DNA of 12,244 bases from a virus (taxonomy: Duplodnaviria > Heunggongvirae > Uroviricota > Caudoviricetes), in the IMG/VR virus record IMGVR_UViG_2681813321_000010; one strand, 5' to 3'. Below, in pieces: positions 1-12,244 of this stretch; the first letter of the stretch is position 1, and every line of letters begins with the position of its first letter. A model generated the notes under the pieces. It searched no databases and was not told the DNA's origin. It saw nothing but the letters and a program-made list of their open reading frames with translations. Position numbers and translations under genes: made by a program.

Positions 1-140
1 TGCCTGGTGCCTCCAGGTGACGTTAACCAGTTAACAATTAACGCCGGATACAGAGAATCCACCCATAACACTGTTTTTGGTTTTAACTGTTCCGCGTGCG
101 CTCAGCCGCATTCACCGCATCACAAAATTCACTTTAAAAA

Positions 141-193
141 CGGCGGCAGAGCAGTCACGGAGTAAAACTGATACCGCCAAACGTCACCAGAAA
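141..193 (-). ncRNA. dicF: DicF sRNA (ftsZ-targeting antisense sRNA), copy 1
   Basis: The reverse complement of 141-193 reads tttctggtgacgtttggcggtatcagttttactccgtgactgctctgccgccg. I recognise this as the 53-nt DicF of E. coli Qin. A T-run on the minus strand (136-140) follows it. Its position downstream of ydfC matches K-12 synteny. Confidence 0.85.
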
Positions 194-533
194 ATTGATA
201 ACAGAGGGCGTTGCAGCGGGGTTGTCGCTTAAGCGTATGGTCAACCTGACAACCCGGTGTCCTCAACGGGGAAGGAATAACCCCGCCATACTTACCGCCG
301 CGCCATTTCGCGGAGTGCCACAACCGGAAGCGCACGGTCGACGAAAATTTAACGACAGGCTATCTATGAACCAGCTACCTCGCCGTGCGCTTTCGCGTTA
401 TGGTCTGACTTTTCATGGAAATATCCTTTCAGTAAACTGTCAGTGCCGGATGCTCACCCATGTCCGGCGCACGCACTCCACCTCACCCGTGGAGAACTCC
501 TTAATTACCAACCTTAGCTTCGTTGGTTAGCTA
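194..533 (-). other. Untranslated ydfC-dicF spacer of the polycistronic precursor transcript (DicF is processed out of it)
   Basis: It lies between the ydfC stop and the DicF 5' end on the transcribed strand. The only ORFs are R/W/C-rich and overlap dicF. In K-12, DicF is released from the ydfABC-dicF-dicB transcript by RNase E/III processing (recalled knowledge). Confidence 0.5.
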
Positions 534-752
534 TTAACGCGGGTATGTAATCATTCTGGCAATGCTTAATGCCGCTGCTTTTTCCAGCCTGGTGATATCC
601 TGCTCCAGAGCGGACAGATTTTCAGCCTGCTTAGCCCTGGCTTCATTGGCCCATTTCAGATCCTGCGCTGCATTAATTTTCTGGCGCATCCACTCATAAA
701 GTTCATCATCGGTATAGTCTGGCGAGATGATGACGGGTTCTCGTTTCTGCAT
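534..752 (-). CDS. ydfC: YdfC-like small prophage protein (72 aa)
   Basis: ORF-track translation MQKREPVIISPDYTDDELYEWMRQKINAAQDLKWANEARAKQ..., recognised as Qin YdfC. A GAGGA SD precedes the ATG on the minus strand. Synteny is ydfA-ydfB-ydfC-dicF. Confidence 0.85.
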   Translation of the reverse strand: MQKREPVIISPDYTDDELYEWMRQKINAAQDLKWANEARAKQAENLSALEQDITRLEKAAALSIARMITYPR

Positions 753-781
753 ACTGATTCCTCGCGGTGCTGCTTCGCTTA

Positions 782-910
782 TCAGCCGTTAGATTTTGCC
801 GAGCTGGAAAGCGCCTGTTTAAACTCACTGAAGCTGAGAGCTTCTTCGCCTTCGGCAAGGCCTTCGAAGTATTCTTCGTAAGCCTTTTCCATGATTGTGT
901 CGAAATCCAT
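782..910 (-). CDS. ydfB: YdfB-like small protein (42 aa); below the ORF-track length cut-off
   Basis: Hand translation of the minus strand from ATG 910-908 gives MDFDTIMEKAYEEYFEGLAEGEEALSFSEFKQALSSSAKSNG, with stop TGA at 784-782. The start lies 1 nt after the ydfA stop. It matches my recollection of Qin YdfB. Confidence 0.8.
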   Translation of the reverse strand: MDFDTIMEKAYEEYFEGLAEGEEALSFSEFKQALSSSAKSNG

Positions 911-911
911 A

Positions 912-1067
912 TCACTCACCTGAGTTTCTTTCCAGCCAGCGACGGGCACCATTTTCGGTTTTAAACGTTTTGCTTCTGGTATACGTCATCGCGGTAAACG
1001 TGCCGTCCTGGTTGGGAAACACGCCGTACACCAGAGATTCGTTGTTGCCAAGATCGATAGTATCCAT
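912..1067 (-). CDS. ydfA: YdfA-like protein (DUF1391 type, 51 aa from the internal Met)
   Basis: MDTIDLGNNESLVYGVFPNQDGTFTAMTYTRSKTFKTENGARRWLERNSGE. A GAGGT SD sits 4 nt upstream of ATG 1067-1065. The ORF-track start at 1121 has no SD, and K-12 YdfA is 51 aa. Confidence 0.8.
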   Translation of the reverse strand: MDTIDLGNNESLVYGVFPNQDGTFTAMTYTRSKTFKTENGARRWLERNSGE

Positions 1068-1144
1068 GCTGACCTCATTTCCCCTTAACGCTGGGGTAGC
1101 GGAACTGTTTGCTGAGAACACCGTGCGGTGTGTTGATGCAAATA

Positions 1145-1199
1145 AGATTAGCCATGGCTAACATATAGGTCAAGTGATTTTGTATGTTATGGCTAACAT
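1145..1199 (-). promoter_or_regulatory. Promoter and operators of the ydfABC-dicF operon, module 1
   Basis: On the minus strand: -35 TTGACC (1173-1168), a 17-nt spacer, then -10 TAATCT (1150-1145). The palindrome TTAGCCATGGCTAA (1148-1161) lies in the spacer/-10. A second imperfect site, TGTATGTTATGGCTAACA (1181-1198), lies upstream of the -35. Confidence 0.55.
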
Positions 1200-1211
1200 G
1201 ATTGATGTGGT

Positions 1212-1242
1212 AAAAGATAACTCATTGATGATGTTATCTTTT
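1212..1242 (-). terminator. Hairpin overlapping the dicA stop codon; possible (bidirectional) intrinsic terminator
   Basis: Perfect 10-bp inverted repeat aaaagataac (1212-1221) / gttatctttt (1233-1242) with an 11-nt loop. T/U-rich ends are present on both strands. Confidence 0.4.
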
Positions 1243-1641
1243 ATTTGTCCGCTGACGGGCTTTTAGTAATTCTTCAAAGAGTTTATTGAAGTTTTTTACT
1301 CGAGCTCGCATTTCGGCGAGCTGGGTATCCTGTTCTGATTCTGGCAGTGCATTAAACAGCTCAAGGAGCTCTAGTTCTTTGGGGGATAAGGCAACTGGCT
1401 TCTCAACAGGTGGTGTTGGTTGCTTGTCTTCATCGCCAAATAGAATCCATGTTGGTGAGCATTGCAATACTTTGCTGAGGGCAAAAAGGTTCTTCCCTGT
1501 AGGTTCACTATCATCCCGTTCCCATTGTGATACAGACACATGGGAGATTTTCAGGGCTTTAGCAAGAGACCTTTGGGTGTGTTTGAGGTTTTTCCGACGA
1601 TACCTAATGCGTTCGCCGATAGTTAAATTTTTTGTTTCCAT
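1234..1641 (-). CDS. dicA: DicA, XRE-family HTH prophage repressor (135 aa)
   Basis: Translation METKNLTIGERIRYRRKNLKHTQRSLAKALKISHVSVSQWER..., recognised as K-12 Qin DicA. It is divergent from dicC across an operator-rich spacer. There is no S24 peptidase domain. No SD precedes the ATG. Confidence 0.9.
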   Translation of the reverse strand: METKNLTIGERIRYRRKNLKHTQRSLAKALKISHVSVSQWERDDSEPTGKNLFALSKVLQCSPTWILFGDEDKQPTPPVEKPVALSPKELELLELFNALPESEQDTQLAEMRARVKNFNKLFEELLKARQRTNKR

Positions 1642-1643
1642 AG

Positions 1644-1709
1644 TTAGCTAATGCTAAATCGTATTGACTATGTTTTTGTTAACATCTATTTTGTTAGTTA
1701 TGACTAACA
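1644..1709. promoter_or_regulatory. dicA/dicC divergent control region, module 1
   Basis: Palindrome TTAGCTAATGCTAA (1644-1657) lies 2 nt from the dicA ATG. The rightward promoter is TTGACT (1664-1669), a 17-nt spacer, then TATTTT (1687-1692). A perfect 18-bp palindrome TGTTAGTTATGACTAACA (1692-1709) lies at or after the -10. Confidence 0.6.
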
Positions 1710-1724
1710 ATAAAGGTGTTTTAA

Positions 1725-1955
1725 ATGCTTAAAACTGACGCTCTTTTGTATTTCGGTTCAAAAACAAAACTTGCACAAGCAGCAGGTATTCGTTTGGCTT
1801 CGCTTTATAGCTGGAAAGGGGATTTAGTTCCCGAAGGTCGCGCGATGCGTCTACAGGAGGCATCTGGCGGGGAGCTTCAGTATGATCCCAAAGTTTATGA
1901 TGAATATCGTAAGACGAAGCGGGCGGGGCGGTTGAACAATGAAAATCACTCCTGA
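1725..1955 (+). CDS. dicC: DicC, Cro-like / YdaS-family HTH regulator (76 aa)
   Basis: Translation MLKTDALLYFGSKTKLAQAAGIRLASLYSWKGDLVPEGRAMRLQEASGGELQYDP..., recognised as K-12 DicC. It occupies the Cro position opposite the repressor. Confidence 0.9.
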   Translation: MLKTDALLYFGSKTKLAQAAGIRLASLYSWKGDLVPEGRAMRLQEASGGELQYDPKVYDEYRKTKRAGRLNNENHS

Positions 1956-2460
1956 ACAGGCTCGTGAGGCTCTGGATGCCTGGATATGTCGACCAGGAAT
2001 GACACAGGAGCAGGCGACGATATTAATCACTGAAGCATTCTGGGCTTTGAAAGAGCGCCCGAACATCGATGTTCAGCGTGTCACAGATGAAGGTGGCGCG
2101 GTTGATCAGCGAGCGCTTGGCGTTAATCGAGTGAAGATATTCGAACGCTGGAAGGCTATCGACACCAGGGATAAGCGTGAAAAGTTCACGGCGCTAGTGC
2201 CTGCGATTATGGAGGCTATCCGGATTAGTGATTTCAGGTTGTATCGTGAGATCAGTGATGGAAAAAGTATTACGTACATGATCGCCGGGTTAAATAAAGA
2301 ATATGGCGATGTGGTGGAATCCGGACTGCTTTTTGCAGATCCTGCCGTTGTAGATCGTGAAACTGACGAACTTATAGAAAAAGCAATTGCTTTCAAGCTT
2401 GCGTATCGACAGCAATACCAACAAAAAGCTGGATGGAATTATGAGTCTTCTTTTTGCTGA
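1939..2460 (+). CDS. YdaT-family (CII-like) early regulator, 173 aa
   Basis: The ORF overlaps the dicC stop by 17 nt. The segment KIFERWKAIDTRDKREKFTALVPAIMEAI resembles the Rac YdaT region as I recall it. Its position after the Cro-like gene equals the CII/YdaT slot of CP-933P/Rac-type prophages. Confidence 0.6.
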   Translation: MKITPEQAREALDAWICRPGMTQEQATILITEAFWALKERPNIDVQRVTDEGGAVDQRALGVNRVKIFERWKAIDTRDKREKFTALVPAIMEAIRISDFRLYREISDGKSITYMIAGLNKEYGDVVESGLLFADPAVVDRETDELIEKAIAFKLAYRQQYQQKAGWNYESSFC

Positions 2461-3406
2461 ACGCCCACTGGTTATAAACACGCAGCTGGCAATGAAAATT
2501 GGCTTAAACGAAGCCATTGTTTTGCAACAACTGCACTACTGGTTGAGAGATACCAACTCCGGCATGGAATGTGATGGTGTTCGCTGGATTTATAACACAA
2601 CGGAACAATGGCTGGAACAGTTCCCATTCTGGTCAGAGTCAACGTTAAAGCGCGCGTTTGCAAGTCTGAAAACGCTGGGGCTTTTGCGTTGTGAAAAGCT
2701 CAATAAATCAAAGCGCGATATGACCAATTTCTACACGATCAACTACGGGAGCGAGCTTTTAGATGGTGGCAAATTGAGCGAATCCATCGGTTTAAAATGC
2801 GCCGCTCCATCAGGTCAAAATGACACGATGGAAGAGGTCAAAATGAAACGCTCCATTGGTTCAAAACGACTCAATGTCATCGGGTCAAAATGGCCTGATG
2901 ATCTTACAGAGAATACAACAGAGATTACTACAGAGAATAAAAAGACTTCTCGTCCGGAAGCTTCGCAACCGGACCCGCAGACGGTTGAACAGGATTTTTT
3001 AACCCGACACCCTGACGCGGTTGTGTTCAGTGCGAAAAAACGCCAGTGGGGCAGCCAGGAAGATTTGGCGTGTGCGCAGTGGATCTGGGGGCGAATCGTG
3101 AGTCTTTACGAGCAGGCCGCCAGCGATGATGGCGAGATTTCGCGACCGAAAGAACCCAACTGGACCGCATGGGCCAACGACGTGCGCACAATGCGGATGC
3201 TGGATGGCAGAACTCACAGACAAATTTGTGAAATGTTTGGTCGGGTGCAGCGGGATCCATTCTGGGTAAAAAATATCATGAGTCCGTCAAAGCTTCGCGA
3301 AAAATGGGATGAACTGGTTATCCGCCTGGGGCGTTCGTCTGTACAGCGTTGTGTGAATCATATTTCTGAGCCGGATACCGAAATTCCGCCGGGCTTCAGG
3401 GGGTAA
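2441..3406 (+). CDS. Replication initiator, lambda O-like (321 aa from ATG 2441; the ORF is open from 2387)
   Basis: The N-terminal region looks like a winged helix (MSLLFAERPLVINTQLAMKIGLNEAIVLQQLHYWL...). An iteron array plus AT-rich tract lies inside the linker-coding part, as in lambda O/ori. The ATG at 2441 overlaps the upstream stop by 20 nt. Confidence 0.7.
   Translation: MSLLFAERPLVINTQLAMKIGLNEAIVLQQLHYWLRDTNSGMECDGVRWIYNTTEQWLEQFPFWSESTLKRAFASLKTLGLLRCEKLNKSKRDMTNFYTINYGSELLDGGKLSESIGLKCAAPSGQNDTMEEVKMKRSIGSKRLNVIGSKWPDDLTENTTEITTENKKTSRPEASQPDPQTVEQDFLTRHPDAVVFSAKKRQWGSQEDLACAQWIWGRIVSLYEQAASDDGEISRPKEPNWTAWANDVRTMRMLDGRTHRQICEMFGRVQRDPFWVKNIMSPSKLREKWDELVIRLGRSSVQRCVNHISEPDTEIPPGFRG
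2783..2945. repeat. Putative ori, module 1: five iterons plus an AT-rich tract inside the O-like gene
   Basis: The core GGT(C/T)(A/T)AAA(A/C)(T/G)G... (ggtttaaaatg, ggtcaaaatg x3, ggttcaaaacg) begins at 2789, 2813, 2836, 2858 and 2883, with 22-25 bp spacing. Several cores are preceded by tccatc/tccatt. The tract atcttacagagaatacaacagagattactacagagaataaaaa follows (2901-2943). Confidence 0.6.
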
Positions 3407-3446
3407 GTGTTAATTTCTGGTCATGAGGTAATTTTCAGGAGGGCTT

Positions 3447-3869
3447 GTGGCAAAAGTTTTTACACAAGAAGAGCGGGAAAAAATTAAAGGGCAGGTTGTT
3501 GAACTCGTACGCCGGAGTGGGCGTGAGACGTTACGGCAACTGGAAGTCAAGACAGGTGCGACAAGATATCTGATGAGCGTTCTCGCAAGAGAGCTGGTTG
3601 CCAGCGGCGATGTATACAACTCTGGTTACGGGTTATTCCCGTCTGAACAGGCGCGTAAGGACTGGCAAAATGCCCGTAAAAAGCTCTCAAGGGCAAAGCT
3701 GAAGGAACCATCTGCGGTTGATCCGGACCTTATCTGGTCATTACCTGACGGAGAAATACGTCGCTACGACAGGCGTCAGAACATAATCTGTCGCGAGTGC
3801 CGGAAGAGTGAAGTTATGCAGCGCATACTAGCATTCTATCAGGGAAATGCTCGATATTTATTGAAGTGA
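3447..3869 (+). CDS. Conserved early-region protein of unknown function (140 aa, GTG start)
   Basis: A CAGGAGGG SD lies 3 nt upstream of GTG 3447. The paralogue in module 2 is highly similar, with mostly conservative changes. I recognise no family. Confidence 0.6.
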   Translation: MAKVFTQEEREKIKGQVVELVRRSGRETLRQLEVKTGATRYLMSVLARELVASGDVYNSGYGLFPSEQARKDWQNARKKLSRAKLKEPSAVDPDLIWSLPDGEIRRYDRRQNIICRECRKSEVMQRILAFYQGNARYLLK

Positions 3870-4121
3870 TGAGATTAAAGTTTATTAGTTCAGATATTGA
3901 TTGGCTCTTTTGTGGAGTAGGGTAGAGTTAGTGTGTTTGTCTGCTTGGTGCCAGCAGCGGATATGTTTAACAACAGAAAGCATTCAGCATGGTTAGTGGA
4001 TTTGCAAAGTGGATTAGGATTTGAGAAACTTTGATGAAGTTGTAAAGCTTGTTTCTATAAAAATAGAAATTTAACTAATAGTTAAACACACCTCCAGCTT
4101 CATTGAAAAGGATTATTAGCT

Positions 4122-4547
4122 ATGATTGATCCACTTATTAGAAACTTACAGAGTGATATTGCACTACTCCAGCTTTATATCGCGCAACGCAAACAGGCAG
4201 GCTTTCATGACATGGAAAGAATAATTGAGTCATTGACCATCTTTATGTTTCGCGCGCTGAAAATGGGTGAACTGGTAAACATGAATCAGATTAAAGTTAA
4301 TTTTCCCGCCATTGATTTAGCTGATAATAAAAACATGATAGCAGTTCAAGTTACTACGAATGCAAGTCCAGCAAAAATTAAAAAAACTATCGAATCTTTT
4401 GAGAAAATAAATGAAATAGGAGAGAGTCTGAAAGATAAATACTCTACTTTATATATTTTTGGTTTTAACTGTTCCGCGTGCGCTCAGCCGCATTCACCGC
4501 ATCACAAAATTCACTTTAAAAACGGCGGCAGAGCAGTCACGGAGTAA
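4122..4547 (+). pseudogene. SMEK-domain protein N-terminal fragment, truncated at the module junction (4455/4456)
   Basis: AT-rich ORF. The motif ...VNFPAIDLADNKNMIAVQVTTNASPAKIKKTIESF... matches the SMEK-domain signature as I recall it (N..AIDL.D...IA.QVT....KI..T...F). After about codon 112 the frame runs into dicF-flanking repeat DNA and stops at 4547, antisense to dicF. Confidence 0.55.
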
Positions 4548-4575
4548 AACTGATACCGCCAAACGTCACCAGAAA
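4523..4575 (-). ncRNA. dicF: DicF sRNA, copy 2 (sequence identical to copy 1)
   Basis: Same 53-nt sequence and T-run as copy 1. It lies inside the perfect repeat. Confidence 0.85.
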
Positions 4576-4915
4576 ATTGATAACAGAGGGCGTTGCAGCG
4601 GGGTTGTCGCTTAAGCGTATGGTCAACCTGACAACCCGGTGTCCTCAACGGGGAAGGAATAACCCCGCCATACTTACCGCCGCGCCATTTCGCGGAGTGC
4701 CACAACCGGAAGCGCACGGTCGACGAAAATTTAACGACAGGCTATCTATGAACCAGCTACCTCGCCGTGCGCTTTCGCGTTATGGTCTGACTTTTCATGG
4801 AAATATCCTTTCAGTAAACTGTCAGTGCCGGATGCTCACCCATGTCCGGCGCACGCACTCCACCTCACCCGTGGAGAACTCCTTAATTACCAACCTTAGC
4901 TTCGTTGGTTAGCTA

Positions 4916-5134
4916 TTAACGCGGGTATGTAATCATTCTGGCAATGCTTAATGCCGCTGCTTTTTCCAGCCTGGTGATATCCTGCTCCAGAGCGGACAGA
5001 TTTTCAGCCTGCTTAGCCCTGGCTTCATTGGCCCATTTCAGATCCTGCGCTGCATTAATTTTCTGGCGCATCCACTCATAAAGTTCATCATCGGTATAGT
5101 CTGGCGAGATGATGACGGGTTCTCGTTTCTGCAT
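4916..5134 (-). CDS. ydfC: YdfC-like protein, copy 2 (identical 72 aa)
   Basis: The ORF-track translation is identical to 534-752. Confidence 0.85.
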   Translation of the reverse strand: MQKREPVIISPDYTDDELYEWMRQKINAAQDLKWANEARAKQAENLSALEQDITRLEKAAALSIARMITYPR

Positions 5135-5163
5135 ACTGATTCCTCGCGGTGCTGCTTCGCTTA

Positions 5164-5292
5164 TCAGCCGTTAGATTTTGCCGAGCTGGAAAGCGCCTGT
5201 TTAAACTCACTGAAGCTGAGAGCTTCTTCGCCTTCGGCAAGGCCTTCGAAGTATTCTTCGTAAGCCTTTTCCATGATTGTGTCGAAATCCAT
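5164..5292 (-). CDS. ydfB: YdfB-like protein, copy 2 (42 aa)
   Basis: Coordinates are copy 1 +4382. The stop tca was verified at 5164-5166. The DNA is identical. Confidence 0.8.
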   Translation of the reverse strand: MDFDTIMEKAYEEYFEGLAEGEEALSFSEFKQALSSSAKSNG

Positions 5293-5293
5293 A

Positions 5294-5449
5294 TCACTCA
5301 CCTGAGTTTCTTTCCAGCCAGCGACGGGCACCATTTTCGGTTTTAAACGTTTTGCTTCTGGTATACGTCATCGCGGTAAACGTGCCGTCCTGGTTGGGAA
5401 ACACGCCGCATACCAGAGATTCGTTGTTGCCAAGATCGATAGTATTCAT
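5294..5449 (-). CDS. ydfA: YdfA-like protein, copy 2 (51 aa; MNTIDLG..., 2 aa differences from copy 1)
   Basis: Internal Met of ORF 5294-5503. It differs from copy 1 at D2N and Y14C. Confidence 0.8.
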   Translation of the reverse strand: MNTIDLGNNESLVCGVFPNQDGTFTAMTYTRSKTFKTENGARRWLERNSGE

Positions 5450-5526
5450 GCTGACCTCATTTCCCCTTAACGCCGGGGTAGCGGAACTGTTTGCTGAGAA
5501 CACCGTGCGGTGTCTTGGTGGAGATT

Positions 5527-5580
5527 AATTTAGAATAACCTAACAAATGTAGCAAGTATTTTTGTTAGATTGGTCTAACA
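5527..5580 (-). promoter_or_regulatory. Promoter and operators of the ydfABC-dicF operon, module 2
   Basis: On the minus strand: -35 TTGCTA (5555-5550), a 17-nt spacer, then -10 TAAATT (5532-5527). TTAGAATAACCTAACA (5530-5545) lies in the spacer/-10. A perfect 18-bp palindrome TGTTAGATTGGTCTAACA (5563-5580) lies upstream of the -35. The architecture matches module 1 but the bases differ. Confidence 0.55.
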
Positions 5581-5616
5581 AAAAGAGTGAGGGAATCTAA
5601 GTATCTGAAAGGAGTG

Positions 5617-6024
5617 TTATTTTATTGATTTGTTTTTACGTGCTTTAAGCATTTCTTCGAAGAGTTTATTGAAATTCTCTACTCTTGCGCGCATTTCAGA
5701 CAGTAAGGCTTCCTGCTCGGAGGAGGGAAGAGCATCGAATAATTCGATCAATTCTTTGTGGCTGGGAGTTAACTCGGTTTCCACATGAAGTTCTTGTGCT
5801 GGCACTGGTGCCTTGTCTTCGTCACCAAACATTAGCCATGTAGGCGAGCACTTCAGCGCATCAGCTAAAGCAAATAACCGCTTCCCGACCGGTTGGGTTT
5901 CGTCTCTTTCCCATTGTGAAATTGTGACGTGAGCTACCCCAGCGAGGCGTGCAGCTTCTCGTTGTGTTAGGCGTAATTCTTTTCGTCGTGCCAGAACTCG
6001 CTGGCCTAGGGTTCTTGTATCCAT
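5617..6024 (-). CDS. DicA-family XRE HTH repressor, second allele (135 aa)
   Basis: Same length and position as DicA. By eye it is roughly half identical: MDTRTLGQRVLARRKELRLTQREAARLAGVAHVTISQWER... versus DicA. The shared blocks are CSPTW..FGDEDK and MRARV.NFNKLFEE.LKAR. Confidence 0.85.
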   Translation of the reverse strand: MDTRTLGQRVLARRKELRLTQREAARLAGVAHVTISQWERDETQPVGKRLFALADALKCSPTWLMFGDEDKAPVPAQELHVETELTPSHKELIELFDALPSSEQEALLSEMRARVENFNKLFEEMLKARKNKSIK

Positions 6025-6026
6025 AG

Positions 6027-6091
6027 TTAGGTAATTCTAATTTTTCTTGACTTAGGTATCCCGCGCACATTACTGTTAGGAATATCTAACA
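6027..6091. promoter_or_regulatory. Repressor/Cro-like divergent control region, module 2
   Basis: TTAGGTAATTCTAA (6027-6040) lies 2 nt from the repressor ATG. The rightward promoter is TTGACT (6047-6052), an 18-nt spacer, then TACTGT (6071-6076). An 18-bp site TGTTAGGAATATCTAACA (6074-6091) overlaps the -10. Confidence 0.55.
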
Positions 6092-6104
6092 AGAGGGGGC
6101 TTTG

Positions 6105-6332
6105 ATGCTTAAAGTTGACGCAATTACTTTTTTTGGCAGCAAAACAAAACTTGCCAATGCCGCAGGAGTGAAACTGGCAAGTGTTGCTGCATGGGGGGAA
6201 CTGGTTCCTGAAGGTCGCGCGATGCGCCTGCAAGAGGCATCCGGCGGGGAACTTCAGTACGACCCCAAAGTTTATGACGAATATCGTAAGGCAAAGCGGG
6301 CGGGGCGGTTGAACAATGAAAATCACCCCTGA
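6105..6332 (+). CDS. DicC/YdaS-family Cro-like regulator, second allele (75 aa from ATG 6105)
   Basis: An AGAGGGGG SD lies 5 nt upstream of ATG 6105; the ORF track starts at TTG 6102. The N-terminal HTH half is diverged from DicC. The C-terminal half (LVPEGRAMRLQEASGGELQYDPKVYDEYRK.KRAGRLNNENH) is nearly identical. Confidence 0.85.
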   Translation: MLKVDAITFFGSKTKLANAAGVKLASVAAWGELVPEGRAMRLQEASGGELQYDPKVYDEYRKAKRAGRLNNENHP

Positions 6333-6837
6333 ACAGGTTTGTGAGGCTCTGGATGCCTGGGTATGCCGACCAGGAATGACACAGGAGCAGGCGACGATAT
6401 TAATCACGGAAGCATTCTGGGCTCTGAAAGAACGCCCGAACATCGATGTTCAACGCGTCACGTTTAATGATGGCGAGGTTGATCAACGGGCGTTGGGCGT
6501 TAACCGGGTGAAGATATTCGAACGCTGGAAAGCTATCGACACCAGGGATAAGCGGGAAAAATTCACGGCGCTGATTCCGGCAATTATGGAGGCTATCCGG
6601 ATCAGCGATTTCAGGTTGTATTGTGAAATTACTGACGGAAAAAGCATTACGTACATGATCGCCGGGTTAAACAAAGAATATGGTGATGTGGTGGAGTCCG
6701 GGCTGCTTTTTGCGGATCCATCTGTTGTGGAACGTGAGACTGACGAGCTTATAGAAAAAGCTATTGCTTTCAAGCATGCGTATCGTCAGCAATACCAACA
6801 AAAAGCTGGATGGAATTATGAGCCTTCTTTTTGCTGA
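6316..6837 (+). CDS. YdaT-family (CII-like) early regulator, copy 2 (173 aa)
   Basis: Paralogue of 1939-2460 with few substitutions. It has the same 17-nt overlap with the upstream gene. Confidence 0.6.
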   Translation: MKITPEQVCEALDAWVCRPGMTQEQATILITEAFWALKERPNIDVQRVTFNDGEVDQRALGVNRVKIFERWKAIDTRDKREKFTALIPAIMEAIRISDFRLYCEITDGKSITYMIAGLNKEYGDVVESGLLFADPSVVERETDELIEKAIAFKHAYRQQYQQKAGWNYEPSFC

Positions 6838-7783
6838 ACGCCCACTGGTTATAAACACACAGCTTGCGATGAAGATTGGCTTAAATGAAGCCATTGTGTT
6901 GCAGCAGTTGCATTACTGGTTGAGAGATACCAGTTCCGGTATGGAATGTGACGGGGTTCGCTGGATTTATAACACAACAGAACAATGGCTGGAACAGTTC
7001 CCGTTCTGGTCAGAGTCAACGTTAAAACGCGCATTTGCAAGTCTGAAAACGCTGGGGCTTTTGCGTTGCGAAAAGCTCAACAAATCAAAGCGTGATATGA
7101 CTAATTTTTACACGATTAATTACGAGAGTGAGCTTTTAGATGGTGGCAAAGTGAGCGAATCCATCAGGTCAAAATGCGCCGCTCCATCGGGTCAAAATGA
7201 CACGATGGAAGAGGTCAAAATGGCACGCTCCATTGGTTCAAAACGACCCAATGTCATCGGGTCAAAATGGCCTGATGATCTTACAGAGAATACAACAGAG
7301 ATTACTACAGAGAATAAAAACACTTCTCGTCCGGAAGCTTCGCAACCGGACCCGCAGACGGCTGAACAGGATTTTTTAACCCGACACCCTGACGCGGTTG
7401 TGTTCAGTGCGAAAAAACGCCAGTGGGGAAGTCAGGAAGATTTGGCGTGCGCACAGTGGATCTGGGGACGAATCGTGAGTCTTTACGAGCAGGCTGCCAG
7501 CGATGATGGCGAGATCACGCGACCGAAAGAACCAAACTGGACCGCATGGGCCAATGACGTGCGCACAATGCGGATGCTGGATGGCAGAAGCCACAGACAA
7601 ATTTGCGAAATGTTTGGTCGGGTACAGCGAGATCCATTCTGGGTAAAAAACATCATGAGCCCGTCAAAGCTTCGCGAAAAATGGGACGACCTGGTCATCC
7701 GCCTGGGGCGTTCACCTGTACAGTGTTGTGTGAATCATATTTCTGAACCGGATACCGAAATTCCGCCTGGTTTCAGGGGATAA
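6818..7783 (+). CDS. Replication initiator, lambda O-like, copy 2 (321 aa)
   Basis: By my count there are 14 aa differences from copy 1 over 321 aa. It is intact and contains the second iteron array. Confidence 0.7.
   Translation: MSLLFAERPLVINTQLAMKIGLNEAIVLQQLHYWLRDTSSGMECDGVRWIYNTTEQWLEQFPFWSESTLKRAFASLKTLGLLRCEKLNKSKRDMTNFYTINYESELLDGGKVSESIRSKCAAPSGQNDTMEEVKMARSIGSKRPNVIGSKWPDDLTENTTEITTENKNTSRPEASQPDPQTAEQDFLTRHPDAVVFSAKKRQWGSQEDLACAQWIWGRIVSLYEQAASDDGEITRPKEPNWTAWANDVRTMRMLDGRSHRQICEMFGRVQRDPFWVKNIMSPSKLREKWDDLVIRLGRSPVQCCVNHISEPDTEIPPGFRG
7160..7322. repeat. Putative ori, module 2: five iterons plus an AT-rich tract
   Basis: ggtcaaaatg cores start near 7167, 7190, 7213 and 7260, with ggttcaaaacg at 7235. 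The same acagagaatacaacagagattactacagagaataaaaa tract follows. Confidence 0.6.
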
Positions 7784-7823
7784 GTGGTGATTTTAGGGCA
7801 TAAAGTAATGTTCAGGAGGACTT

Positions 7824-8231
7824 ATGGCAAAAGTATTTACACAGGAAGAGCGGGAAAAAATTAAAGGACAGGTGGTGGAACTCGTGCGCCAGAGCGGTCG
7901 TGAGACGTTACGGCAACTGGAAGCTAAAACAGGTGCGACAAGATATCTGATGAGCGTTCTTGCCAGAGAGCTGGTTGCCAGTGGTGATGTATATCACTCT
8001 GGCTATGGGGTGTTCCCGTCAGAACGGGCTCGTAAGGACTGGCAAAACGCCCGCAAAAAACTCTCGAGGGCAAAGGTGAAGAAACCTGTTGTGGTTGATC
8101 CGGGCCTTATCTGGACATTACCCGACGGAGAAATACGCCGCTACGACAGGCGTATGAACATAATCTGTCGCGAGTGCCGGAAGAGCGAAGTTATGCAGCG
8201 TGTATTGGCGTTCTATCAGGGATATGCCTAG
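7824..8231 (+). CDS. Conserved early-region protein of unknown function, copy 2 (135 aa, ATG start)
   Basis: A CAGGAGGA SD is present. It is the paralogue of 3447-3869 and differs mainly at the extreme C-terminus. Confidence 0.6.
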   Translation: MAKVFTQEEREKIKGQVVELVRQSGRETLRQLEAKTGATRYLMSVLARELVASGDVYHSGYGVFPSERARKDWQNARKKLSRAKVKKPVVVDPGLIWTLPDGEIRRYDRRMNIICRECRKSEVMQRVLAFYQGYA

Positions 8232-8599
8232 AATTGTCACAGGTAATGAAATTAAAGAGTATTGGTTCGGATATGAATTGACATTTTCGCGGCACAGAGC
8301 TAAAAATAGCCTACTTGTTGGTTTTGTGTGAAAAGCAGACATTTTGAGGCTCAGGATTTGTTATCAAATAAGACCAATACTTATCTATATTAATACACAT
8401 TAAATACTGTGCAATACATTATTGCATTTTATTAGATAAGCGATATTTAGGGAAAAGAAAAGTCATAGAAAACAGGCCGCTATTTGTTGTTGGATTTTAT
8501 AGGCTATATCTAGATTATCTTGCCACTGCGGTCTCTGTTTACCTAACAGCTTGGGCTTCTTTGCATGCAAGTTTGTAATAACAAGAGTAATCAAACGGA

Positions 8600-9631
8600 A
8601 TGTCTATTAATCCTAAACTTAAGCGTATCGCGCGACGCTATCCAGCGTTATTCCAATATGAGTCCCCCTATATGGCAAGAAAATTAATAATATTCGGCAA
8701 CGGTCTCGGTATGGCTTTAGATCCTGCTCACTTCTCCTTAGACAGAGCGTTGGAAGAAATTTGGCATCGCCCCAATTTTTTAAAAGATATCCACAAGCAA
8801 CTTATCGAGCGTTGTCTTCAGCGGCAAGGTCCACCAGAAGGAGAACATGAGTTGGATACCCTTCACCAGGCTGTCACATATTGTAAAGCTCTTGCTCAAA
8901 TTGGAGAGGGGAACGTGCATTGGCTTACTGAAGATGGACTAAACTTCCCCAAAATTACCGCCACTTATATTCACAAAGTTGCAACCAGGTTGCATAATTA
9001 CGATAAAGGTTTGCCACAAAGATTCGAAAATGCGCTTGTGGAGTTTGTAAAGAACACACACTCACATATCGCGACATTAAACTATGACAAATTATTATAC
9101 AATTCATTCATAGATAATGATATATTCAACGGGTATGATGGGGTTTTAGTTGATGGGATGCTAAGCCACGGATTTTCCTCTGCAGCGCTCGAACGGAAAT
9201 ACAATCGTAGGTTTGGTTATTATTTGCACTTGCATGGTTCACCACTATTTATTAATCAGCATGAAAATGTTTTAAAACTTTCACGCTCACAACTTACTCT
9301 TGACATAGATGAACCTAGTGAGCATATAGTGTTAACTCATATAAAAAGAAAACCGTCAGTTATAGCAGCATCTAATGTTCTTTCTACGTACTGGGATTAT
9401 TTGCAGTTTGCATTATTTGAATCAGAAGAAATAATATTGTTTGGTTACTCTGGTCTCGATATTCACCTTAACCTGCTTATTCGACCTTACCTAACCTCTA
9501 AGCCTTTAAGAGTAATTGAGTGGAGCGGTGCTGGTGAACAAAACGCTCGTGAGATATATTGGAAAAACCAGTTGAGACGGGAAGTTACTGTAATTAGGTT
9601 GGATAACATCACTGATTTTATTGATTGGTAG
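8600..9631 (+). CDS. Stand-alone SIR2-like (DHS-like NAD-binding fold, SIR2_2-type) protein, 343 aa; candidate defence NADase
   Basis: Four motifs occur in the order typical of prokaryotic SIR2_2 proteins. These are LIIFGNGLG (aa 29-37, cf. GAGxS), IATLNYDKLL (aa 157-166, cf. TTNYD), YLHLHGSP (aa 208-215, cf. xHLHG) and IILFGYSGLD (aa 278-287, cf. GYSxxD). The gene and its 370-bp upstream region are visibly AT-rich relative to the flanks. Confidence 0.6.
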   Translation: MSINPKLKRIARRYPALFQYESPYMARKLIIFGNGLGMALDPAHFSLDRALEEIWHRPNFLKDIHKQLIERCLQRQGPPEGEHELDTLHQAVTYCKALAQIGEGNVHWLTEDGLNFPKITATYIHKVATRLHNYDKGLPQRFENALVEFVKNTHSHIATLNYDKLLYNSFIDNDIFNGYDGVLVDGMLSHGFSSAALERKYNRRFGYYLHLHGSPLFINQHENVLKLSRSQLTLDIDEPSEHIVLTHIKRKPSVIAASNVLSTYWDYLQFALFESEEIILFGYSGLDIHLNLLIRPYLTSKPLRVIEWSGAGEQNAREIYWKNQLRREVTVIRLDNITDFIDW

Positions 9632-9701
9632 CGCAATGCGAAGTTAAAGAGGCAGCCTCATATTTATCAGAGCTGGTGTACGTCCAATACAGGAGGTTAT
9701 C

Positions 9702-9791
9702 GTGCTGGTTCTCAAATGCGCGCTGGCTATTGCGGCTGTAGTGGCAATTTATTGTCTTGCTATTGTTCTTATGGATCGCCTTTCTGATTGA
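9702..9791 (+). CDS. Candidate 29-aa hydrophobic peptide (VLVLKCALAIAAVVAIYCLAIVLMDRLSD)
   Basis: A perfect AGGAGG SD (9691-9696) lies 5 nt upstream of GTG 9702. The peptide has a single predicted TM-like helix plus a charged tail. No terminator is visible between it and the SIR2-like gene. Confidence 0.4.
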   Translation: MLVLKCALAIAAVVAIYCLAIVLMDRLSD

Positions 9792-9887
9792 TTTTATATT
9801 GGCGAGGTGACGGGAGTTAAGTAGAATTGCTGCGGGTGCTTGAGGCTGTCTGCCTCGGGCATGCCACCGTAAGGCAGACAGAGAAAA

Positions 9888-9955
9888 GCCCCAGTTAACA
9901 TTACGCGTCCTGCAAGACGCTTAACATTAATCTGAGGCCCAATCTATGCTTCACA
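9888..9955 (-). ncRNA. sok: Sok-like antisense RNA (approximate ends)
   Basis: On the minus strand: promoter TTGCCT (9989-9984), a 17-nt spacer, then TAACCT (9966-9961). The transcript would be antisense to the mok start and leader. It contains the hairpin gcgtc/gacgc (9905-9920) and then a cttttctc tail. Confidence 0.4.
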
Positions 9956-10158
9956 AACGTAGGTTAGCCTCTTACGCGCCGAAAGGCAAGGAGAAGCAGG
10001 CTATGAAGCAGCAAAAGGCGATGTTAATCGCCCTGATCGTCATCTGTTTAACCGTCATAGTGACGGCACTGGTAACGAGGAAAGACCTCTGCGAGGTACG
10101 AATCCGAACCGGCCAGACGGAGGTCGCTGTCTTCACAGCTTACGAACCTGAGGAGTAA
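9946..10158 (+). CDS. mok: Mok-like regulatory reading frame (70 aa, in-frame N-terminal extension of Hok)
   Basis: ORF MLHKRRLASYAPKGKEKQA followed by Hok. The arrangement resembles chromosomal mokC/hokC-type loci. Confidence 0.6.
   Translation: MLHKRRLASYAPKGKEKQAMKQQKAMLIALIVICLTVIVTALVTRKDLCEVRIRTGQTEVAVFTAYEPEE
10003..10158 (+). CDS. hokD: Hok-family type I toxin, HokD/RelF-like (51 aa)
   Basis: MKQQKAMLIALIVICLTVIVTALVTRKDLCEVRIRTGQTEVAVFTAYEPEE, recognised as K-12 HokD. A GGAG SD lies inside mok. Confidence 0.9.
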   Translation: MKQQKAMLIALIVICLTVIVTALVTRKDLCEVRIRTGQTEVAVFTAYEPEE

Positions 10159-10226
10159 GAGACCAGGCGGGGGAGAAATCCCTCGCCACCGCTGATGTGT
10201 CAGGCATCCTCAACGCACCCGCACTT

Positions 10227-10258
10227 AACCCGCTTCGGCGGGTTTTTGTTTTTATTTT
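10227..10258 (+). terminator. Rho-independent terminator of the hok mRNA
   Basis: Stem (aa)cccgc / gcggg(tt) with loop ttcg (10229-10242), followed by tttttgtttttatttt. Confidence 0.8.
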
Positions 10259-10374
10259 CAACGCATTTGAAGTTCTGGACGGTGTCGGAATAGAATCAAA
10301 AATACTTAAGTAGCGCGCAGGGATAAGAGGGATGGTCCCTTAAAGGGGAGAGCTAATTATCCGGAAGGATTCTG

Positions 10375-10626
10375 ATGATGAACATCGAAGAACTGCGTAA
10401 AATTTTTTGTGAAGATGGCCTCTATGCTGTGTGCGTTGAAAATGGAAATATTGTTAGTCATTACCGCATTGTGTGTTTGCGAAAGAATGGGGCTGCGTTA
10501 ATTAATTTTGTGGATGGTCGAGTGACAGACGGATTTATCTTGCGCGAAGGTGAGTTTGTCACTTCATTACAGGCACTGAAAGAGATCGGAATAAAAGCTG
10601 GCTTTTCTGCTTTTTCAGAAGAATAA
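10375..10626 (+). CDS. rem: Rem-like prophage protein (83 aa)
   Basis: MMNIEELRKIFCEDGLYAVCVENGN..., recognised as Qin Rem. A GGAAGGA SD is present. It lies next to hokD, as in K-12. Confidence 0.8.
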   Translation: MMNIEELRKIFCEDGLYAVCVENGNIVSHYRIVCLRKNGAALINFVDGRVTDGFILREGEFVTSLQALKEIGIKAGFSAFSEE

Positions 10627-10692
10627 ACTCATCTACAATCTTGCGCGGGGCTGAACTCCCGCTGAGTAACACCGTGCCGCCGGAGGAAACCG

Positions 10693-10971
10693 ATGGCACG
10701 CAACGCAAAATATTACAATCATGATAATTCGACCGTTCTTGCCCACACGCACGAGCGGTATTCTCACGCATTTAAGTCAGACTGGTACCAGCATCCCCCA
10801 TGCACTGAAGAACAGGCCGAATGGCTCATTCAGTGTTACCGCAGGCGCGGATGCGAGGTTAAAAAAGCCCTTAGCCTCGACTACCGTCACTGGATAATCT
10901 CCGTCGGGCTTCCTTACTCCGAACGCCCACCGCGTCTGTCCCGCACATTCCAGCAACGCATCTGGAGGTAA
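10693..10971 (+). CDS. Hypothetical prophage protein (92 aa)
   Basis: A GGAGGA SD lies 6 nt upstream. The stop is 1 nt before the ydfU GTG start, suggesting translational coupling. I recognise no family. Confidence 0.55.
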   Translation: MARNAKYYNHDNSTVLAHTHERYSHAFKSDWYQHPPCTEEQAEWLIQCYRRRGCEVKKALSLDYRHWIISVGLPYSERPPRLSRTFQQRIWR

Positions 10972-10972
10972 C

Positions 10973-12022
10973 GTGCGGGTATTACTTCGACCTGTTCTGG
11001 TACCGGAACTCGGGCTGGTGGTCCTTAAGCCCGGTCGCGAATCACTGCCGGTTTTTCATTGCGGCAGGGTGCTGGTGGAGCCGGAACCGAAAAGCATGCG
11101 CGGTCTGCCGTCCGGAGTCGTCCCTGCCGTTCGCCAGCCGCTGGCGGAGGATAAATCATTACTGCCATTTTTCAGCGATGAGCGTGTGATTCGTGCTGCT
11201 GGCGGCGCTGGCGCACTGTCTGACTGGCTCCTGCGTCATGTCAAATCCTGCCAGTGGCCTCATGGTGACTACCATCACAGTGAAACCGTCATACATCGTT
11301 ATGGTACCGGCGCAATGGTGTTGTGCTGGCACTGCGACAACCAGCTGCGCGACCAGACCTCCGAATCACTCGGGCAACTTGCTCACCAAAACCTGTCTGC
11401 ATGGATGATTGACGTCATACGCCATGCAATGAATGGCTCGCAGGAACGGGAATTATCGCTGGCTGAATTATCCTGGTGGGCGATCCGCAATCAGGTGGCG
11501 GACGCGCTACCGGAAGCGGTATTACGTCGTTCGCTGGGGTTGCGTGCGGAAAAAATCCGCTCAATGTACCGTGAAAGCGACATCGTACCGGGAGAGCAGA
11601 CCGCCACCAGCATACTGAAACAGCGCACAAAAAATCTTGCGCCGCTGCCTCACGCCCACCAGCAACAGAACCCGCCACAGGAAAAGACGGTGGTCAGCAT
11701 TGCTGTTGATCCGGAGTCTCCGGAATCTTTAATGAAGCGACCTAAACGTCGCCGTTGGGTAAATGAGAAATATACGCGCTGGGTAAAGACACAGCCGTGT
11801 GCGTGTTGTGGTAAGCCAGCCGACGATCCCCATCACCTGATTGGTCATGGTCAGGGCGGAATAGGGACAAAAGCCCACGATATTTTCACGCTACCGTTGT
11901 GCCGGGAGCATCACAACGAACTTCATGCTGATCCGCTGGCATTTGAAGAAAAGCATGGTTCCCAGATTGATTTAATTTTTCGTTTTCTTGATCGCGCCTT
12001 TGCAACCGGCGTGCTCGGGTAA
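10973..12022 (+). CDS. ydfU: YdfU, DUF968-family protein (349 aa) with a C-terminal Cys/His HNH-like motif
   Basis: MRVLLRPVLVPELGLVVLKPGRES..., recognised as Qin YdfU. The C-terminus reads CACCGKPADDPHHLIGHG...CREHHNELH. It has a GTG start preceded by GGAGG. Confidence 0.85.
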   Translation: MRVLLRPVLVPELGLVVLKPGRESLPVFHCGRVLVEPEPKSMRGLPSGVVPAVRQPLAEDKSLLPFFSDERVIRAAGGAGALSDWLLRHVKSCQWPHGDYHHSETVIHRYGTGAMVLCWHCDNQLRDQTSESLGQLAHQNLSAWMIDVIRHAMNGSQERELSLAELSWWAIRNQVADALPEAVLRRSLGLRAEKIRSMYRESDIVPGEQTATSILKQRTKNLAPLPHAHQQQNPPQEKTVVSIAVDPESPESLMKRPKRRRWVNEKYTRWVKTQPCACCGKPADDPHHLIGHGQGGIGTKAHDIFTLPLCREHHNELHADPLAFEEKHGSQIDLIFRFLDRAFATGVLG

Positions 12023-12034
12023 AAGAGGTTACTG

Positions 12035-12244
12035 ATGCGTATAGAGTTTGTTTTGCCTTACCCGCCGACGGTGAACACCTACTGGCGACGTCGTGGCAGC
12101 ACATATTTTGTGTCAAAAGCCGGTGAGCGTTATCGCCGGGATGTGGCACTTATTGTTCGCCAGCAGCGGCTGAAATTAAACCTGTCCGGAAGGCTGGCGA
12201 TAAAGATTATTGCAGAGCCACCGGATAAGCGCCGCCGCGACCTG
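12035..12244 (+). CDS. rusA: RusA-like Holliday-junction resolvase, 5' partial (runs off the window)
   Basis: Hand translation gives MRIEFVLPYPPTVNTYWRRRGSTYFVSKAGERYRRDVALIV...EPPDKRRRDL. The PDxRRRDL motif is typical of RusA. An AAGAGG SD lies at 12023-12028. Confidence 0.75.
   Translation, partial: MRIEFVLPYPPTVNTYWRRRGSTYFVSKAGERYRRDVALIVRQQRLKLNLSGRLAIKIIAEPPDKRRRDL

Follow-up and report, generated by a model that had tools for sequence, protein, structure and literature searches.

A 3'-truncated and most likely non-functional SMEK-domain cargo gene at a probable recombination junction between two DicF-type prophages of E. coli

The window, by which we mean the entire 12,244-nucleotide stretch of DNA analysed here, covers the early region of an E. 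coli lambdoid prophage of the DicF type (Qin/Rac-like), which is present here as two tandem modules. In module 1, a DUF977/Ren-like gene encoding 140 aa (3447..3869, + strand; Pfam PF06163, 2e-30; PHROG 142 'Ren-like exclusion protein', 3.4e-46) is followed 252 bp later by an open reading frame (ORF) at 4122-4547 on the + strand, which encodes 141 aa and has 34% GC overall. The 5' spacer between the two (3870..4121, +) is AT-rich, with 34.5% GC, and is 100% identical to that of prophages carrying an intact SMEK gene (hereafter SMEK prophages). GC content is 33.8% over the ORF part 4122-4455 and ~49-52% in the flanks, and the AT-rich ORF that an earlier note had placed after the 140-aa gene is thus present. 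An AGGA Shine-Dalgarno-like motif lies 9 nt ahead of the ATG, and a promoter and terminator scan of 3800-5000 returned nothing exceeding the shuffled background.

The ORF is composed of two parts. Codons 1-115 (4122..4466, +) are identical in DNA to the first 115 of 299 codons in the genes for WP_000566848.1 and encode the SMEK_N domain of Pfam and NCBIfam. Translation comparison showed that the remaining 26 codons, NCSACAQPHSPHHKIHFKNGGRAVTE, and the stop (4467..4547, +) are read from DNA of a second prophage type, which carries a SIR2-family gene (the SIR2 prophage). These foreign codons run out of frame into the flank of the small RNA gene dicF and end at a stop at 4545-4547. An intact dicF (copy 2; 4523..4574, - strand; Rfam RF00039, 72.5 bits, full-length model match) lies at this end of the ORF, and an identical copy 1 lies at 141-192 on the - strand (Rfam). 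The frame had been described as running 29 more codons antisense through dicF; only its last 25 nt overlap the gene, antisense to the 3' part of copy 2. Likewise, a division into 112 and 29 codons is the right arithmetic when counted from 4456, but the SMEK protein is in fact matched identically at aa 1-115, which leaves 26 aa for the foreign tail.

The proposal that the first ~112 codons encode a SMEK N-terminal domain was borne out by profile searches, with scores far above chance. The ORF product matched Pfam PF21941 (SMEK_N) at E=1.1e-22 and 80.8 bits (cut-off 27), with aa 9-114 aligned to positions 2-102 of the 140-position profile, and NCBIfam NF033859 at 107.9 bits (cut-off 30; 1.8e-31). 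The PADLOC match reached no further than the N-terminal REase region of Aga_REase-PNTD1-PNTD2, a model of an Argonaute-associated protein. A profile of 32 homologues matched one solved structure, PDB 26bh, the Mrr domain of the Kordia jejudonensis Mrr-APAZ pAgo (E=5.7e-12, profile positions 20-138), with the common motif NFPAIDLAD...IA(V/F)Q(V/I)T(S/T)...KI. The literature on short Argonautes describes SMEK as an Mrr-like PD-(D/E)xK nuclease effector fused to APAZ (PMC10810196; bioRxiv 10.1101/2023.06.08.544223), and the only SMEK relatives reported there as nucleases are those associated with pAgo (PMC10810196). The earlier attribution of SMEK to bacterial 'conflict systems' found no support in PMC7159879 and PMC8195603, from which the word 'SMEK' is absent; the usable literature is that on short Argonautes.

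Within the alignment of 32 homologues, E36, N60, D65, Q76, T78, K85, T89, G114 and F115 are invariant. The putative active-site residues E36, D65, Q76-x-T78 and K85/K88, all invariant or nearly so in this alignment, are present in the ORF of the window. A second conserved set, which includes H158, H165, P166, D169, R182, H187, E192 and G193 among others, lies in the C-terminal half of the full-length protein and is lost here.

We found the full-length gene through BLAST with window 3870-4455, a search suggested in the earlier note. This segment is held by 151 of 5,426 complete E. coli genomes, in 146 of them at an identity of at least 99%, and each match underlies a gene of 900 bp annotated 'SMEK domain-containing protein', whose 299-aa product is WP_000566848.1. 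A search of 5.8 billion protein clusters recovered 108 homologue clusters from Enterobacterales, Pseudomonas, Vibrio, Xanthomonas, Cupriavidus and others across Proteobacteria, nearly all of them 293-305 aa long with ~100% query cover and 42-99% identity. None of these ~100 clusters supports a form of ~140 aa, and all keep the ~300-aa architecture, which implies that the C-terminal domain is required. Because the homologue clusters are almost all 293-305 aa long, the copy in the window is truncated; a natural end near residue 140, which would have spoken against truncation, was not seen. Its product is identical to the full-length protein at residues 1-115 before the 26 unrelated residues begin, and it lacks the full-length architecture (SMEK_N plus a C-terminal helical domain in 293-305 aa), making the ORF a fragment of a family member. 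The gene had been called 'decapitated': it is indeed cut, but the missing part is the 3' end (aa 116-299), not the head. The lost 184 aa, along with the rest of the cargo that accompanies the gene in SMEK prophages, were found nowhere else in the window.

The AlphaFold2 model of the full-length protein (pLDDT 85) combines an alpha/beta N-domain with a helical C-domain. The C-terminal part, residues 132-299, is all-helical and matches generic helical bundles only, and the full-length protein has no Pfam match beyond SMEK_N and no recognisable fold match for its helical domain. The break falls inside the strand LYIFGF, within core strand 109-118, and strand 127-130 is gone as well. The recognisable effector-like module, SMEK_N with its Mrr-like nuclease core, is therefore probably the part largely kept, and the conserved helical domain the part lost. 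This probably reverses the initial expectation that an effector domain had been removed, since SMEK_N is itself the Mrr-like nuclease module (26bh, E=5.7e-12; PMC10810196).

The cut gene occupies one copy of a cargo slot. Homology between the modules (1818-3897 versus 6195-8274) runs at ~90% and then decays, which puts the left edge of the slot at ~3897/8274, 28 nt past the module-1 DUF977 stop and 43 nt past that of module 2; the '~45 bp' first given for this distance was close. The module-2 DUF977 gene (7824-8231) stops five codons earlier than its module-1 counterpart (135 versus 140 aa). The PHROG 142 match of the DUF977 proteins places the slot at the position after ren in phage lambda. 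In module 2, the slot (8275..9648, +) is 1,374 bp long and holds only a SIR2-family gene (ORF 8600-9631; Pfam SIR2_2, 1e-05; 'SIR2 family protein' in RefSeq). BLAST block boundaries show the two prophage types becoming homologous again at 9649, upstream of the sok antisense RNA (9834-10008; Rfam, 116 bits) and the hokD/mok reading frame (9946-10158), which together form the conserved right flank. The SIR2 ORF is 343 aa from its first ATG and 319 aa in the RefSeq annotation of strain 12A (locus L002, 13290-14249); it scores just above the Pfam SIR2_2 threshold (26.1 versus 24.5 bits), and its candidate PADLOC models are PDC-S21 and Aga_SIR2.

In intact SMEK prophages the slot spans 3,188 bp and holds the SMEK gene together with a class I methyltransferase gene and a gene for a 231-aa hypothetical protein, the latter two on the opposite strand (locus L001, 8467-9828; locus L003, 10467-11828). 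The 231-aa protein has no family match. The methyltransferase, a class I SAM enzyme with a weak PADLOC mad2 match, is annotated with 594 bp in strains 12A and FDAARGOS_1059 and by 654 bp in C7 and EC7518. Other E. coli prophages carry between DUF977 and hokD two hypothetical genes, a DUF5677 gene, a QueH-like gene with a hypothetical gene and a KwaB-like gene, or a HEPN gene, and E2348/69 has a larger, different insert in this interval. The QueH-like gene and the gene for the KwaB-like (Kiwa) domain protein lie at 4597-7110 of locus L018 (NZ_CP092452.1), and the stand-alone HEPN gene lies at 4592-5524 of locus L019 (NZ_CP053731.1). The KwaB-like and HEPN occupants suggest a rich defence hotspot. 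The earlier view that one relative locus holds two different defence-like cargo genes, SMEK in module 1 and SIR2 in module 2, agrees with this picture of a variable slot between conserved DUF977 and sok/hokD flanks.

Next to the slot, the window contains a perfect repeat: 74-1026 equals 4456-5408 base for base, with no mismatch at an offset of 4382, and the first mismatch to the left falls at 73/4455. A switch at 4456 into sequence identical to 74 onward had been noted before and is exactly what we found. The window remains identical to the intact SMEK gene up to 4466, an 11-bp overlap with the repeat. A three-way comparison of the window with locus L003 (SMEK gene) and locus L002 (SIR2 prophage) identified this 11-bp microhomology, TTTTTGGTTTT (4456..4466), as the recombination junction. 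In the SIR2 prophage the same 11 bp occur at the breakpoint too, downstream of dicF, and no other 11-mer is common to the SMEK-prophage patch and the initial ~950 bp of SIR2-prophage sequence. The sharp junction proposed at 4455/4456 is therefore in the right place, but the join is not blunt.

Both parents of the window were found in sequenced strains. At yccA, E. coli O111:H2 strain 12A carries a SIR2 prophage with 100% identity to window 4456-12244 (7,789 bp) and also to window 1-1026. Window 1003-4466 differs by one mismatch from the SMEK prophage at serU/mtfA of 12A and not at all from its counterpart in FDAARGOS_1059. The homologous crossover, where SIR2-prophage sequence gives way to SMEK-prophage sequence, falls in a 24-bp interval (1003..1026) bounded by the last SMEK-prophage-type mismatch at 1002 and the first SIR2-prophage-type mismatch at 1027. 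To the left of it, window 117-1002 differs from the SMEK prophage by 25 mismatches and one indel, and the 25 SNPs diagnostic of the SIR2 prophage are all present in both 953-bp copies. In 12A and FDAARGOS_1059, the SMEK and SIR2 prophages are separate, ~1.2 Mb apart and in opposite orientation. By sequence comparison, then, the window is a mosaic of SIR2 prophage (1-1026), SMEK prophage (1003-4466) and SIR2 prophage again (4456-12244). The net change is a 4,382-bp insertion made up of a 3.4-kb SMEK-prophage patch and a 953-bp duplication that includes dicF. A single event had been proposed to have joined the modules and cut the SMEK gene; the gene was indeed cut by the joining, but the arrangement is a two-junction patch (SIR2 to SMEK to SIR2) and not an end-to-end fusion.

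The rearrangement leaves two immunity regions in tandem. Module 1 carries DicA/DicC (1234-1641, -; 1725-1955, +), and module 2 carries an HTH repressor and a Cro-like gene (5617-6024, -; 6102-6332, +) that are unrelated in sequence to DicA/DicC. Two repressors would act on such a hybrid prophage, DicA on dicB, exo and int, and the other repressor on the late genes. Copy 2 of dicF is no longer followed by dicB and faces the SMEK remnant instead.

We considered whether the junction, and with it the truncation, could be an artefact in which an assembler mis-join, or a chimeric read or amplicon of co-resident prophages, disguises a SMEK gene that is really intact and two prophages that really lie apart, as they do in 12A and FDAARGOS_1059. 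Megablast of 4300-4620 found no sequence spanning the junction among 5,426 complete E. coli genomes (0/5,426) or 50,697 phage records, an exact 35-mer across it had no occurrence in the genome, viral and metagenome contig collections, and an exact look-up of the 141-aa product returned no record. For the second breakpoint, window 700-1400 had no exact match in complete genomes, the best being 99.0%. The junction accordingly has no independent confirmation. An artefact would be consistent with the uniqueness of both breakpoints to the window and with the 100% identity of each parental segment to one of the separate prophages in sequenced sister strains; these prophages also have in common long near-identical repeats of the kind that confuse assemblers, and microhomology junctions also arise by template switching in vitro. 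However, absence from the collections is weak evidence, because the source record is evidently not in them. From the way assemblers work, a repeat-driven mis-join at 11 bp and 24 bp, shorter than the usual k-mers or overlaps, would be improbable, and a random chimeric ligation would not land on the sole shared 11-mer. Moreover, a coherent patch between SIR2 flanks, entered by one homologous junction and left by one microhomology junction, is typical of template switching in vivo. We therefore regard an artefact as unlikely.

The reading we favour, and consider likely, is that the patching of SMEK-prophage DNA into a SIR2 prophage left this ORF behind as what remains of a single-gene prophage cargo, truncated at its 3' end and most likely without function. 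We assume that the loss of function would be complete. The remnant still has its own upstream region, start codon and Shine-Dalgarno-like motif, and none of the invariant residues in the nuclease core is missing. These features could instead point to a 141-aa product that is made and active, whether as an unregulated mini-nuclease or as a dominant-negative or decoy for full-length SMEK, and since the frame and any read-through transcript enter dicF (4523-4574) in antisense, a transcript from a SMEK promoter might act against dicF copy 2. Against such activity, the break disrupts core strand 109-118 and removes both strand 127-130 and the whole conserved C-domain, a 141-aa form is conserved in no lineage, the ~300-aa architecture is kept throughout the homologue clusters, and no promoter-like site rises above background upstream. 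We saw no evidence of selection on the remnant and hold an active product to be very improbable.

If the remnant arose as we propose, the lineage of origin would have been very close to E. coli O111:H2 12A and FDAARGOS_1059 and would have carried both prophages as separate elements. A 3.4-kb SMEK-prophage stretch, containing ydfA, dicA, dicC, ydaT, a replication gene, DUF977 and SMEK codons 1-115, would have been copied or recombined into the SIR2 prophage. It would have been entered by a homologous switch within 1003-1026 and left by an illegitimate switch at the 4456-4466 microhomology, landing 953 bp upstream of the entry point. Such an event would leave the prophage with a tandem pair of immunity and replication modules and with a SMEK gene that breaks off at codon 115. 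The mechanism may have been MMBIR-type template switching, or else the SIR2 prophage may have received the patch through two crossovers; a RecE-like exonuclease of the prophages themselves may have helped. Simpler origins were rejected, namely one crossover or inversion between the two prophages, tandem duplication between sister chromatids, and Campbell-type insertion of a SMEK-prophage circle. Under each of them, one of the 953-bp copies should contain SMEK-prophage-type SNPs or the two immunity regions should be the same, yet both copies carry all the SIR2-type SNPs and the immunity regions differ.

The intact 299-aa protein is probably a stand-alone anti-phage nuclease in which the helical domain would serve in sensing or regulation. 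The neighbours of distant ~300-aa homologues vary and include LmuB/AAA_15, Abi_alpha, SLATT_5, SymE, integrases and resolvases, as would be expected if the gene stands alone in defence islands and mobile elements. We rejected the methyltransferase and the 231-aa hypothetical protein as conserved partners, since both are absent beside the distant homologues. A literature search returned no paper on the stand-alone ~300-aa SMEK family and no experiment tying it to phage defence, and PADLOC has no full-length model for it.

The remnant itself adds only a damaged copy to a gene family that already has an annotation, and prophage-prophage recombination of this kind is commonplace in E. coli. The rearrangement, resolved to the base pair and with both parents identified in sister strains, is nonetheless a clean example of how polylysogens make mosaic, dual-immunity prophages. 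It also flags the DUF977(Ren-like)-hokD interval as a cargo hotspot, whose stand-alone SMEK gene has no published function and is a candidate phage-defence nuclease. More tentatively, the intact SMEK proteins of ~300 aa may constitute a single-gene anti-phage system not yet characterised, as one of many cassettes that are swapped in the Ren-to-hokD hotspot of DicF-type lambdoid prophages, and the window may at the same time record a real, very recent template switch, a combination that we find possible though doubtful. If true, a template switch would have built a prophage with two immunity regions, two dicF copies and split repressor control, in which the SMEK remnant marks the breakpoint. 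For work on defence systems, both the full-length SMEK gene and the Ren-hokD hotspot offer leads that are sensible if modest.

Among known systems, the Mrr/type IV restriction PD-(D/E)xK nucleases resemble the SMEK protein in a predicted alpha-beta-beta-beta-alpha-beta core with a conserved E...D...QxT/K, and the SMEK protein also has a weak structural match to a phage 'restriction endonuclease'. In contrast to these enzymes, no winged-helix or other DNA-recognition domain was detected in the putative SMEK nuclease, and the canonical Lys of (D/E/Q)xK is a Thr, with conserved Lys residues in the next helix. The Mrr-APAZ partners of short pAgo, as in Kordia jejudonensis (26bh), have a homologous N-terminal domain and the common motif. 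Full-length SMEK relatives, unlike these partners, lack APAZ and end in an unrelated helical domain, and we found no Argonaute (PIWI) gene beside the SMEK gene in E. coli, Pseudomonas, Vibrio, Citrobacter or Enterobacter contexts.

The closest counterpart is WP_000566848.1 itself (299 aa), encoded in DicF-type lambdoid prophages at serU/mtfA, to which window 3870-4466 is 100% identical in DNA, with the same spacer and the same place after DUF977. The window copy differs in lacking codons 116-299, the methyltransferase and the 231-aa hypothetical protein, and in carrying the 26-aa foreign tail instead. The rearrangement resembles microhomology template switching or illegitimate recombination between co-resident lambdoid prophages in its identifiable parents, its 24-bp homologous and 11-bp microhomology junctions and its duplication; it differs from known cases in that the mechanism here is deduced purely from the DNA. 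Temperate phages such as P2/P4 and lambdoid prophages carry variable 'moron' or defence hotspots at fixed positions. The slot described here is like these in its conserved flanks (Ren-like DUF977 and sok/hokD) and in its swapped, AT-rich and often defence-like cargo, but differs from them in that one of its two copies was broken by rearrangement and not filled by a complete cassette.
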